64,000 bases of DNA. Origin: Phycisphaerales bacterium. GTDB taxonomy: Bacteria; Planctomycetota; Phycisphaerae; WQYP01. The stretch spans positions 43,317-107,316 of the forward strand of contig DAIDJN010000059.1 of NCBI GenBank assembly GCA_027451365.1, written 5' to 3'. Positions 36,001 to 39,000 of this stretch are shown here, in pieces. Made by a program: the position numbers. Each line of letters opens with the position of its first letter. Within the stretch, counting starts at the first letter, position 1.

Positions 36001-39000
36001 TCGAAGCCGTTGAGCAGCGGCTCGTCGAAGCAATGGTAGGTGAGCGATCCGGGGCTGCGAGCAATCGCCATTTCAAGGTTAATGTCGCGCGGTCGTTCGG
36101 GGTCGAAAAGAGCCTTCATTCCCGGGCGCGGATCGATGTTTATTCCGTGCCATCCGCGCTGGTAGAAATAGCAGGTGTTTGAAAATCGCCATGGGTCGTG
36201 TGCGCCGACGTCGACGTAAAAGCCAGCGCGGCGATGAAGCACGGACCCGAGGAGCGCCCCTAAAATAAGATCTTCCCCTTCTTGCGCGTAGCTGAGCGCC
36301 GCATGCGGGCTGATATAGGCCTCACGCAGCGAGCGTTTCATCCAACCTGGGACGAAACTTTTTGCGGCTCGCACAAGGGGCGAACTTCTCAACATTTGGA
36401 AACTCCTAGATTGCTGAACCGGTGTTGGGTTGTGTCTGACTCCACTGGGCCTCCAAAAGCAGAGGTGCGTCGCCCTCGAATCCGCGTGAGCCAGTTCCGT
36501 AGAAATCTCCGGCCTCGACATCGAGCTGCGCGACAGGGTCCCTCGGGAAGTCCGCCTCGGTGCCGGCAACGACGATTCGCGCATGCACGGCGTATCGACC
36601 GGCTGCCAACGGCAAACGCCCGACGGAGCACCGGAACTCGCTGACACCGGCGCCGGCCGTAAACGTGCGCGACTGGTACGATCCGTAAAAGACCGAGAGC
36701 AGTTGCCCGGTGTAGGAGGTAAAGGACATGCCGATGTCGACCTTGGGCACCGGACGCGAATCTGGATTTTCGCAGTTGAAGACGAATTGGAGGGCCATGC
36801 CGGAAAGGGCGGAGCGGATTGTCTTGCCGTGATCGTTCTCGAGCCGGAATTCAGTGATTCGCAAGGCCCCCGTTCCGCTGCGGGCGACGTCCTTTCTGAT
36901 AGTTATGCGGTCGGCGGCTTGTGGATTGGCGGCCCGCAGGTAGGAGTCGATTGCGGTCCTGACTGGGCCCGAGCCTGCGACGTTGCCTCGCTCCAGAAAA
37001 ATAGCCTTGTTGCAGAGACCGGCCACCGAGGCCATGTTGTGGCTGACAAACAATACGGTCCGGCCACTTTTGCTTACATCCTGCATTTTGCCAAGGCATT
37101 TGTTCTGGAATTCGCTATCGCCCACGGACAGAACTTCATCCACAATTAAAATTTCGGAACTTAAATGGGCGGCTACCGCAAAGGCCAATCGCACATACAT
37201 GCCGCTGGAATAACGCTTTACCGGAGTGTCCAGAAATTTTTCCACGCCCGCGAAATCCACTATGGCGTCGAACTGTTTTCGTATTTCAGACTTTCGCATG
37301 CCCAGAATGGCGCCGTTAAGGAAAATATTTTCCCGGCCGGTAAGTTCCGGGTGAAAGCCCGTGCCTACCTCCAGCAGACTGCCGACGCGGCCGAAAAGGT
37401 CGATCTGGCCACGGGTTGGTTCGGTGATGCGGCTTAAGATTTTAAGGAGTGTGCTTTTGCCCGCCCCGTTGCGGCCAATAACGCCCACGACATCGCCTTC
37501 CTGAACGTCAAAGGAGATATCGTTTAACGCCCAGAAGGTTTCGCGGGTGGGGCGGCGGAATGGGTTTTTAAGGCGCGCCAACGCGGCCTCGGCCAGGGTG
37601 ACGTGGTCGGGGGCGTTGTGGCGAATGGTGTAGGATTTGGCTAAACCTTGGACGCTGATGGCGATAGACATAGTGGGGGTCCAGAAAACAGAAGACAGAA
37701 AACAGAAGACAGAAGGCAGAAGACAGGAGGCAGAAGACGGAAGACGGAAAACAGAAGGCAGAAGACAGAAAACAGAAGGCAGAAGGCAGAAGACAGAAGA
37801 CAGAAGACAGAAAACAGAAGACAGAAGGCAGAAGACAGAAGACGGAAGACAGAAGGCAGAAAACAGAAGACGGAAGACAGTTTGAGGCGCCGGGCTTGTG
37901 TTTTGGTTCCTGATTTCTTATTCACCTATTTTTGATACATTCGCAAGGATGGCGGCACGGTAGCTGTGCAACAATCGGGCAACTTCCTGACAGTTTTGCC
38001 ATAGGGCTTCTTTATTCAGATGGCCCAGGTCGTGGGAAAGGATTAAATAATAGCGACATTCTTCAAGTGATCCTTCTGCGGTATTAAGGAATTTGGCCTT
38101 GTCGGGTCTGGTTTGCTTGCCGAAGCCTTCAGCAATATTGGCGGAAATTGACACCGCGGCACGGCGAAATTGTGATACAAGGCCGTAGAGTTCATCCTTG
38201 GGGAATTTTCTGGTGGCAATATATACTTGAAGCGTGAACGCGTGTGCTTTTTGCCAGACAATTAGATCTTGAAAGGAAGAAGCGGGCGGCGGCATGGGGG
38301 ACCTTTCTAAAAGAAGACAGAAGGCAGAAGACAGAAAACAGAAGGCAGAAGACAGGAGGCAGAAGACAGGAGGCAGAAGACGGAAGACAGAAGGCAGAAG
38401 AGTTTTGAAGCGCTTCGCTTCCGTTTTCTTCTCTTTTCTGGCTTCTTCGTCGCCGGGTTCTTCGTGTCTTCGTGGTGAACTCGGTCGTATCGTTGCGTCG
38501 TCGTGCCGTTGTGGTGAAATCCGTCGCCTTCTGCCTTCTGTCTTCTGTCTTCTGTTTTCTGGCTTCTTCGTCGCCGGGTTCTTCGTGCCTTGGTGCCTTC
38601 GTGGTGAATCGTCATCTTCTGTTTTCTGTTTTCTGACTTCTGCCTTCTGTTTTCTCTTTTCTGGCTTCTTCGTCACCGGGTTCTTCGTGACTTCGCGTCG
38701 GAGTTTATCCCGACGCATCGGGATGGTGAATCGTCGTCTTCTGTTTTCTGTTTTCTAGCTTCTGTTTTCTGACTTCTGCCTTCTGTTTTCTCTTTTCTGG
38801 CTTCTTCGTTAAATAACGTCCGCGAAACGGCGTTCCATTTTCTTAAACAGCATCAGCCCGCTGGCGAACAGGATAATGGCGCACGCGGCGCTCCAGACGG
38901 TGGGGCCGACCAGAAGATGCCCACGGCCCAACAGCGACCAGCGAATGGCGGACAACATGCCCGTAAGGGGGTTGGCACAGTACCAGGGATAAACCCAAAG

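Follow-up and report, generated by a model that had tools for sequence, protein, structure and literature searches.

The window analysed here is a stretch of 64,000 nt from contig DAIDJN010000059.1 of assembly GCA_027451365.1, and coordinates are given in the window (contig position minus 43316). Two ABC transporter genes lie on its minus strand, wzm (ABC-2 permease; 38809–39750; PF01061, E 3.1e-18) as the upstream host cistron and wzt (ABC ATPase with a Wzt_C domain; 36406–37671) as the downstream one. The ATPase domain of wzt is matched by PF00005 (E 3.1e-22) and its Wzt_C domain by PF14524 (E 1.7e-6), the latter at 28.5 bits, under the cut-off of 30.4. The two genes are separated by a spacer of 1137 nt occupied by a gene cassette, which reads, in the order of the mRNA (minus strand), wzm stop, four purine units, proximal pyrimidine array, ORF, distal pyrimidine array and wzt ATG. 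The earlier note had reported a heptamer-flanked gene between wzt and wzm, and TRF and the sequence itself place each feature where that note had put it.

The 5′ arm region (38402–38808, minus strand) follows the TAA stop of wzm (38809–38811) with no gap before the first of its four composite purine units, which were delimited from TRF arrays (38736–38805, 38615–38669 and 38528–38567), a motif search and the sequence. On the plus strand, these three arrays are of the CTTCTGT type, complementary to the CAGAAGA array at the other end of the cassette. Each composite unit is headed by GAAGAAGCCAGAAAA (38793–38807, 38657–38671, 38555–38569 and 38434–38448), followed by CAGAAGR heptamers and then by a CACGAAG-type tail; the GAAGAAGCCAGAAAA motif has four matches in the 5′ arm region and none in 100 shuffles. 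The proximal pyrimidine array (GTCTTCT, 12.9 copies by TRF; 38312–38401, minus strand) lies just 5′ of the ORF, an intact gene of 125 amino acids (37918–38295, minus strand). The 3′ arm is the distal pyrimidine array (TCTTCTG, 28.4 copies, TRF score 272; 37682–37880, minus strand), which has period 7 and consensus CAGAAGA on the plus strand and is separated by 10 nt from the wzt ATG at 37671. Copy numbers are those of the draft MAG assembly. Genome-wide, a three-unit CAGAAGR pattern has 57 matches, 52 of them in the wzm-wzt cassette locus. On the gene strand between 37500 and 40600, a scan gave neither a terminator-like site nor a sigma-70-like promoter (0 against 1.8 expected); an Rfam scan of 36000–41000 returned no rRNA or other family at gathering score and tblastn against phage records gave no match. 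A GGWCCCCC motif, at most a candidate for a target-site duplication, stands ahead of both start codons, that of the cassette gene and that of wzt.

The cassette gene belongs to the S23p (23S-rRNA-IVS protein) family, as had been claimed before. It matches the whole PF05635 profile (positions 1–105 of 106; 123.7 bits, cut-off 33.8) and TIGR02436 (113.8 bits, cut-off 24), and its residues 10–96 match 2GSC, the solved four-helix-bundle protein XCC0516, which was deposited with five chains (E 4.8e-15). The partners of Avd in its function are nucleic acid and a reverse transcriptase. The description of the gene as Avd-like stands as far as the fold family goes, PF05635 being said to resemble Avd in the accessible text of one study (PMC10053308), but does not extend to Avd itself: the Avd-specific models stay under their cut-offs (NF033474, 28.6 bits against 80; PF22296, 20.9 against 40), and the sole RVT_1 match of the genome is on another contig (C18). 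Four PF05635 genes are present in the draft genome, three of them no farther than about 700 nt from the end of a contig, and the family was found in 114 of 201 sampled Planctomycetota genomes, as many as 22 matches being counted in one genome.

A wzm-wzt junction is normally tight, and the cassette is an insertion-like addition to it. Of 67 wzm-wzt pairs in metagenomes, 57 are spaced by −5 to 106 nt, and the remaining 10 have gaps of 812–2733 nt that each contain full-size ordinary ORFs; none of 80 metagenome wzm/wzt loci has a four-helix-bundle match. Among relatives, about 19 of 23 pairs lie under about 90 nt apart, as read by eye from tblastn ends. Judged against these homologous junctions, the cassette is an insertion, which agrees with the earlier claim. 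A strain-level empty site was not found in the metagenome contigs, where the best wzt relative is just 79% identical; a same-genus genome had no wzt match, and in a Planctomycetota genus with five genomes, two loci offered no clean pair of filled and empty sites. The closest wzt relatives (73–78% identity) carry TTCTAGR-type heptamer arrays right before the wzt ATG.

The same design recurs, with a fixed polarity, around relatives of the gene in many phyla. A 5′ arm of purine heptamers with the complement on the 3′ side had already been ascribed to these relatives, and a separate pipeline agreed: flanking inverted periodic arms (inverted repeat score of at least 30) were found at 40 of 76 testable loci in a cross-phylum sample, a score reached by 0 of 76 shuffles and by 1 of 64 displaced flanks. 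A second sample of 42 family members from 16 Planctomycetota genomes, selected without regard to similarity to the cassette protein, gave arms in 29, against 2 of 42 shuffles. No clear arms were seen in the other 36 cross-phylum relatives and 13 Planctomycetota members, and since relatives are kin, all of these recurrence counts overstate independence. G exceeds C in the 5′ arm at 38 loci against 1 (cross-phylum) and at 28 against 1 (Planctomycetota). At the 40 cross-phylum loci with arms, the 5′ arm is at least 65% purine in 34 and at most 35% in none, and the 3′ arm starts no more than 10 nt past the stop codon in 23. The median distance from the end of the purine arm to the start codon is 26 nt. 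The arm unit follows the protein clade, with YAGRAG in the 80 closest relatives and different units in distant family members.

Cassettes of this kind sit mostly between cistrons of a single operon. Host junctions include pheS|pheT, dnaG|rpoD, gltB|gltD, COX1|COX3, mlaE|mlaF, fliH|fliI, thiG|thiH and lspA|lgt, operon partners of which some are usually essential, so that transcription must pass through the cassette; at locus L088, from the cultured carrier Cerasicoccus frondis, it precedes pheT. Two further candidate signals were set aside. The upstream neighbour is on the same strand at 55 of 71 loci and on the opposite strand at 16, by crude ORF calls, which is not clearly above the usual bacterial level, neighbouring genes in bacteria being usually co-oriented. 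Enrichment in polysaccharide loci was likewise dropped: by a reading of the neighbour table, a glycosyltransferase or polysaccharide context applies to only some 5 of the roughly 65 loci sampled.

Periodic arms are not private to the four-helix-bundle gene. The composite unit occurs once more, inverted and in pyrimidine sense, 5′ of wzm (39771–39888, minus strand; arm search and TRF). This copy, absent from the earlier note, forms wzm-enclosing arms with the purine units (38729–38817 with 39771–39859, 89 nt at 81%; 38490–38567 with 39811–39888, 78 nt at 85%). In the spacer before wzm there are also gene-less hairpins with CACAGATT-type periodic arms of 9–10 nt (39934–40440, minus strand; TRF and sequence). 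A second cargo cassette of the operon consists of a GxxExxY / PDDEXK_3 gene between complementary ACAGAGG-type arms (23986–24732, minus strand; inverted repeats), with a PF13366 match at 24200–24553 (E 6.5e-42) and an ATG read at 24576. At the same place in relatives, PDDEXK_3, HepT, PIN and UPF0175+DUF3368 cargo occurs amid arrays of other periodic units, and in one of them (L037) clear inverted arms surround the PDDEXK_3 gene. CTAGAAY heptamer arrays, similar in core, are found there among other cargo genes, which they need not bracket.

In the sense strand, the spacer has a predicted minimum free energy (MFE) of −407.9 kcal/mol, against −300.3 ± 8.3 for 25 dinucleotide shuffles (z −12.9), and 130 of its predicted pairs enclose the gene, against 0–73 in 12 mononucleotide shuffles, so the claim that the fold beats shuffles is upheld. 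The enclosing pairs join 38805–38613 with 37872–37690, and the best arm pair around the gene is 70 nt long with 89% complementarity. The long hairpin closing around the gene, also claimed before, is at the RNA level a prediction from the arms, the MFE and the enclosing pairs. In the same MFE structure, the partners of the proximal pyrimidine array are purine units three and four, and 54 long pairs are upstream only; in a 2361-nt fold, this array takes part in 49 pairs and the unit at 39771–39888 in 96, its predicted pairing with the purine units enclosing wzm. The purine units can thus pair in three predicted ways, one of which encloses wzm, and the hairpin around the gene is just one among several predicted folds. 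Moreover, the antisense strand of the cassette folds better than the sense strand by 91 kcal/mol (−498.8 against −407.9). Arm mismatches in gene sense show no excess of the G·U type over the A·C type (86 against 81 at 40 loci; 77 against 64 at 29 loci), and arm duplex energies favour the sense strand at 21 loci and the antisense strand at 19. Taken together, the lack of a wobble excess, the balanced strand energies and the better antisense fold give no sign of selection for sense-RNA pairing, and the arms have the look of inverted repeats at the DNA level or of arrays of recent origin. In three metatranscriptome contig sets from the same study, the distal array was matched by just one contig, of 37 nt, and the sequence farther upstream by two partial pieces, too little to weigh either way.

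We propose, with about even confidence for and against, that small insertable gene cassettes of the IVS type, tolerated between cistrons, form a widespread class and that the cassette is an outsize example of it. A promoter-less S23p/PF05635 gene, hugged by complementary periodic arms that are G/purine-rich 5′ and C/pyrimidine-rich 3′, would have been inserted exactly at the wzm-wzt junction. The operon RNA would include the cassette, and the arms would pair as a long duplex, placing the host sequences on either side next to each other. By analogy with the S23p-bearing 23S rRNA IVS of Coxiella, RNase III might then cut the arm duplex, and such a cut would be harmless, each cistron being translated on its own. 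Ribosomes that translate the cargo would bind in the purine arm, which would account for the fixed arm polarity. CsrA-type and anti-Shine-Dalgarno readings of this arm were considered and set aside; the CAGAAGR units here are mostly without GGA.

The strand data also fit a DNA-level palindromic mobile element, REP/MITE-like, whose arms would be recombination or transposition sites acting as DNA hairpins or cruciforms; the RNA fold would be a by-product, and the small gene would either ride along or encode a factor of the element. The absence of a sense-strand wobble bias, the balance of strand energies and the more stable antisense strand of the cassette all point this way, as do the gene-less arm hairpins in the same operon and the other cargo amid other periodic arrays at the same place in relatives, with the inverted arms around the L037 PDDEXK_3 gene. 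In Xanthomonas, convergent heptamer pairs vary between species and are not conserved, according to the available text of PMC4692102. The G-rich arm 5′ of the gene (38 against 1 and 28 against 1), however, is not predicted by a strand-blind palindrome, and the single CAGAAGR locus in the draft genome, with 52 of 57 pattern matches, the lack of an identified transposase, and the placement of cassettes in transcribed junctions of essential operons and, per the literature, in rRNA also weigh against such an element, which we regard as possible but rather improbable.

Binding of the heptamer arrays, as RNA or DNA, by a pentameric four-helix-bundle protein, for instance in autoregulation, RNase protection or element maintenance, would agree with the differing arm units of the protein clades, with the relation of the family to Avd (in what is accessible of PMC10053308) and with the five chains of 2GSC. 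It is nevertheless unlikely given the many family members without arms and the similar-core CTAGAAY arrays among other cargo in relatives. Still less probable is that the arrays are host operon punctuation, that is, STRR-like elements stabilising or processing mRNA at many junctions of the lineage's polysaccharide operon, with the gene captured secondarily. Arrays do occur at several junctions of the wzm-wzt operon and around wzm, the TTCTAGR-type arrays precede the wzt ATG in its closest relatives, and hupS-hupL STRR hairpins have been proposed as transcript stabilisers (PMC2670836, available part), but the gene-plus-arms unit is also found in unrelated operons of many phyla, the polysaccharide context is rare among the sampled loci, and the arm unit type tracks the protein clade.

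The cassette may have a wider setting. Tentatively, and with more doubt than confidence, the four-helix-bundle and GxxExxY-nuclease cassettes, the hairpins of such arms without a gene, 23S rRNA IVS with an ORF and intergenic heptamer repeats (STRR, Xanthomonas GGGAATC) could be grouped into one super-class of periodic-arm hairpin elements. Its members would settle in transcribed DNA, be it an operon junction, rRNA or even an open reading frame, since their complementary arms would make the insert harmless in the RNA. The arm sequence would be particular to each family of cargo, and the G-rich-5′/C-rich-3′ polarity would be constant. According to the accessible text of PMC4692102, heptamer repeats are known to be in excess between bacterial genes, for reasons not yet explained. 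The PF05635 family, very large and with no function assigned, would be tied by a common cassette design both to these repeats and to the classic rRNA IVS. For annotation, such a design accounts for oversized spacers inside operons and for assembly breaks at such arrays.

In the main text of openly accessible papers, no description of the gene-plus-arms cassette was found. With the Avd of DGRs, the cassette gene has the four-helix-bundle fold family in common; it differs in that the Avd models are under cut-off, no reverse transcriptase is nearby, and the flanks carry repeat arms where a DGR would have its TR/VR pair. Like REP/BIME-RAYT systems and MITEs, the elements are intergenic palindromic repeats with gene-less copies scattered in operons, but their arms are tandem and periodic, and the G-rich and C-rich sides keep one orientation relative to the cargo gene. 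No cognate transposase was identified, and there are not many dispersed copies, as in REP and MITE, but one locus of the CAGAAGR arm type in the draft genome.

An STRR in RNase P RNA was reportedly described by Vioque in 1997. Heptamer repeats of the STRR kind are known from cyanobacteria (PMC2670836), from Beggiatoaceae as TAACTGA (PMC4679880) and from Xanthomonas and Nostoc as GGGAATC and GGGGAYT (PMC4692102), all in the accessible portions of these papers, and in X. campestris 70 convergent heptamer pairs are able to form stem-loops (same portion of PMC4692102). Tandem 7-nt units between co-oriented genes, with convergent pairs capable of forming hairpins, are common to these repeats and the cassettes (PMC2670836, PMC4692102), and the arm unit of one Planctomycetota cassette (L231) is GGGAATC, as in Xanthomonas. 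Where their text was available, the heptamer-repeat papers treat the repeats alone (G-quadruplexes, translation, stability), with no link to a four-helix-bundle or other cargo.

The likeness to ORF-bearing 23S rRNA intervening sequences, also drawn before, is borne out. Such sequences are found in Leptospira as well as in Coxiella, and RNase III removes them from the rRNA with the ends left unjoined. In the available text of PMC4990558, the helix-45 IVS of Coxiella burnetii has an S23p ORF, tandem GACAGAT/GACAGAA heptamers and a 28-bp terminal stem, and RNase III cuts it at the first repeat. The GACAGAA heptamer is a rotation of the CAGAAGA of the wzm-wzt cassette, and on that portion of the source the two have in common an S23p/PF05635 protein, tandem heptamers 5′ of the ORF, a position inside a host transcript (presumed for the cassette), and terminal inverted repeats closing a stem, predicted in the cassette, around the S23p ORF. 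Unlike the Coxiella IVS, the cassette lies between the protein-coding cistrons wzm and wzt and not in a 23S rRNA helix, and its arms are multiple, with about 200–400 nt of arrays in place of the 28-bp stem described there.

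The cassette stands in a long polysaccharide operon on the window's minus strand, together with genes for a TPR protein, a WecA-like/GT1 fusion, an FkbM methyltransferase and many glycosyltransferases; the wzm stop codon (38809-38811) and the wzt ATG (37671) are 1137 nt apart. In mRNA sense, its first elements are four composite purine units, with a GAAGAAGCCAGAAAA head (four matches vs none in 100 shuffles), then CAGAAGR heptamers and CACGAAG-type tails. A proximal pyrimidine array of 13 copies separates these from an intact 125-aa ORF (38295..37918), and a distal pyrimidine array (28 copies by TRF) follows the ORF and ends 10 nt before wzt. 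At the cassette, a promoter scan found no sigma-70-like promoter, no terminator-like site was found on the gene strand, and no Rfam family reached its gathering score. The motif GGWCCCCC follows a pyrimidine array and precedes the ATG of both the cassette gene (38296-38310) and wzt (37672-37685), a shared context that may reflect duplication of the junction or coincidence. Within the distal array, positions 37787-37823 match, with one mismatch, a 37-nt metatranscriptome contig from the same study (depth 48), which is too short for organism assignment.

The ORF encodes a full-length PF05635 (123.7 bits) and TIGR02436 (113.8 bits) four-helix-bundle protein that also matches the solved Xanthomonas protein 2GSC (E 4.8e-15). 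It had been described as Avd-like; the four-helix bundle stands, but identity with the diversity-generating Avd does not. The protein is of S23p type, because Avd-specific models scored below their cut-offs and the sole RVT_1 match of the genome is on another contig.

Both the arrays and their predicted fold depart from chance, and the figures reported earlier were reproduced. The 4.06-Mb genome has 24 period-7 TRF rows, of which 12 are on this contig and 9 of those 12 have the cassette unit type; 52 of the 57 genome-wide matches to a three-unit heptamer pattern fall in the cassette locus. For the sense RNA the predicted fold energy is -407.9 kcal/mol vs -300.3 +/- 8.3 for 25 dinucleotide shuffles, and the gene is enclosed by 130 predicted pairs (38805-38613 with 37872-37690), vs 0-73 in 12 shuffles. 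The anatomy, a gene with inverted heptamer arrays between wzm and wzt, is confirmed.

This junction is normally tight, as the earlier note had held. Among relatives, wzm lies upstream of wzt in 23 of 30 wzt loci, at less than about 90 nt in some 19 of the 23 (by tblastn ends) and at about 140-590 nt in the remaining four. In metagenomes, wzm was upstream in 67 of 80 wzt loci, with gaps of -5 to 106 nt in 57; the other ten were wide (812-2733 nt), each with full-size ordinary ORFs. A four-helix-bundle match was absent from all 80 loci, and no strain-level empty site of the cassette was found. That gene and arms form an insertable cassette is well supported and highly probable.

The design recurs around relatives of the gene in many phyla. 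The best 80 relatives from genome_contigs (54-74% identity) came, by record title, from Planctomycetota, Verrucomicrobia/Opitutaceae, Acidobacteriota, Armatimonadota, Bacteroidota/Bacteroidia, Nitrospirales/Nitrospiraceae, Dehalococcoidia, Spirochaetaceae, Clostridia, Acidimicrobiia, Proteobacteria and Truepera; four loci with short flanks were dropped, leaving 76. A flanking inverted repeat scoring at least 30 was present in 40/76, vs 0/76 shuffles (best of four each) and 1/64 flanks displaced by 500 nt. Among these 40, the 5' arm had period 7 in 26, and the 3' arm began at most 10 nt from the stop codon in 23; the 5' arm ended a median of 26 nt from the start codon, and its words included CAGGAG (36), CAGAAG (19) and TAGAAG (12). 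The earlier reservation that such loci were best matches and not a random sample was answered by a second sample, 42 PF05635 genes chosen from the top HMM scorers of 16 Planctomycetota genomes (few-contig genomes favoured), in which 29 had inverted arms vs 2/42 shuffles. Periods here were 7 (14 loci), 8 (6) and 9 (2), and the units were quite different from those of the first sample (GTAGGTT, TGGTGTC, CACGGAGG, GGGAATC and others).

Scanned with Pfam, 130 neighbouring ORFs out of 137 (seven omitted for size) showed that cassettes mostly lie between partners of one operon, and therefore transcription has to pass through them. The junctions include dnaG|rpoD, gltB|gltD, COX1|COX3, mlaE|mlaF, fliH|fliI, thiG|thiH, lspA|lgt, mod|res, T2SS E|F and ABC transporter parts, as well as pheS|pheT (both genes at L054, L101 and L105; pheT downstream at L060, L088 and L099). 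The last is a recurrent home in loci titled as Opitutaceae, Opitutus, Verrucomicrobia or Cerasicoccus, and may reflect a single old insertion, vertically inherited. By our reading of the neighbour table, only about 5 of some 65 loci have sugar-chain contexts, so the polysaccharide setting is not a rule; the median distance between neighbouring ORFs is 496 nt, which makes the 1137-nt wzm-wzt cassette unusually expanded.

Several observations indicate that the arms are not exclusive to the four-helix-bundle gene. Upstream of wzm the composite unit recurs in inverted orientation (89 nt at 81%, 78 nt at 85%). In a predicted 2361-nt fold the purine units divide their pairing among the distal array (118 pairs), the proximal array (49) and the unit upstream of wzm (96), the last enclosing wzm. 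Gene-less hairpins with CACAGATT-type arms occupy two spacers, one before wzm and one at 21434-21953. Between a GT4 gene and a Wzy-like gene of the same operon, a GxxExxY/PDDEXK_3 cassette (23986-24732, minus strand; gene 24200-24576, PF13366 E 6.5e-42) has a duplicated purine-rich unit (..CACAGAGGTAACAGAGGGGACCGGAGGA) 5' and two to three complementary units 3', the same polarity as the four-helix-bundle cassette. The wzt relatives closest to this one (73-78% identity; L035-L038 in genomes G028, G033, G003 and G019) have no wzm between the GT-fusion homologue and wzt; the same operon position is there a variable 'slot', in which other 7-10-nt arrays fill 2-3 kb before wzt together with PDDEXK_3, HepT, PIN, UPF0175+DUF3368 and HTH genes, and heptamer arrays extend up to the wzt start codon.

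Repeats were also seen within genes and beside paralogues. A 636-aa GT4-type ORF (21995-23905, minus strand) has two Pfam domains (residues 14-172 and 510-605) and, in frame between them, a 105-nt x 3.7 array (22500-22888) of CACAGATT-type arm units. These repeats may have inserted into a coding gene; alternatively, two genes may have been taken for a single ORF. A second four-helix-bundle gene of this genome (L002, G000:C1:1-1203; gene 134-598), flanked by imperfect inverted repeats, is nested, in another frame, within an ORF that looks YD/Rhs-like (both read by eye); the frame of this ORF runs through the small gene without a stop for 400 aa. Two further paralogues (L003 and L004, at the ends of C77 and C63) have copies of a ~180-nt hairpin-containing repeat without CAGAAGR heptamers; both lie within ~700 nt of contig ends, and these repeats probably break assembly.

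The strongest sign of a strand-specific, gene-tied action of the arms is their polarity, which stays fixed despite complete turnover of arm sequence: the G-rich arm is 5' of the gene in 38 v 1 loci of the first sample and 28 v 1 of the second, and pyrimidine-rich 5' arms number 0/40 and 0/29. Selection for pairing in the sense RNA predicts G.U-type over A.C-type arm mismatches, and no clear excess was seen (86 v 81 in 40 loci; 77 v 64 in 29 loci). Of the arm cofolds, 21 were better in sense and 19 in antisense. For the cassette itself the antisense RNA reaches -498.8 kcal/mol, 91 kcal/mol below the sense RNA, in which the purine arm is rich in A where the pyrimidine arm is rich in C. These results weaken the RNA model without excluding it, because the register of an array can slip and the arrays may not be old enough to show selection. 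The main rival is that the cassette is a DNA-level palindromic element, a reading compatible with an action like that of 23S rRNA intervening sequences (IVSs). RNase III-dependent, IVS-like action is a reasoned analogy, held tentatively, and the combined statement of insertable cassette and such action is about evenly balanced.

A search of full-text literature outside subscription journals found no description of a gene-plus-arms cassette. Short repeats are described in other settings: 7-bp STRR hairpins of unknown function lie between hupS and hupL (PMC2670836), TAACTGA repeats precede start codons in Beggiatoaceae (PMC4679880), and Xanthomonas GGGAATC occurs at 186 repeat sites, 70 as convergent pairs, without conservation between species (PMC4692102). 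This last heptamer, known there as a G-quadruplex-forming repeat (PMC4692102), also occurs in units within a cassette arm at a planctomycetotal locus (L231, G139:C2). In the available portions of these three papers and of PMC4990558, the S23p ORF of the latter aside, no link of repeats to the PF05635 family appears. In that last system, the Coxiella IVS, the S23p ORF is preceded by tandem GACAGAT/GACAGAA heptamers, the terminal stem measures 28 bp, and RNase III cuts at the first repeat (PMC4990558); GACAGAA is a rotation of the cassette unit.
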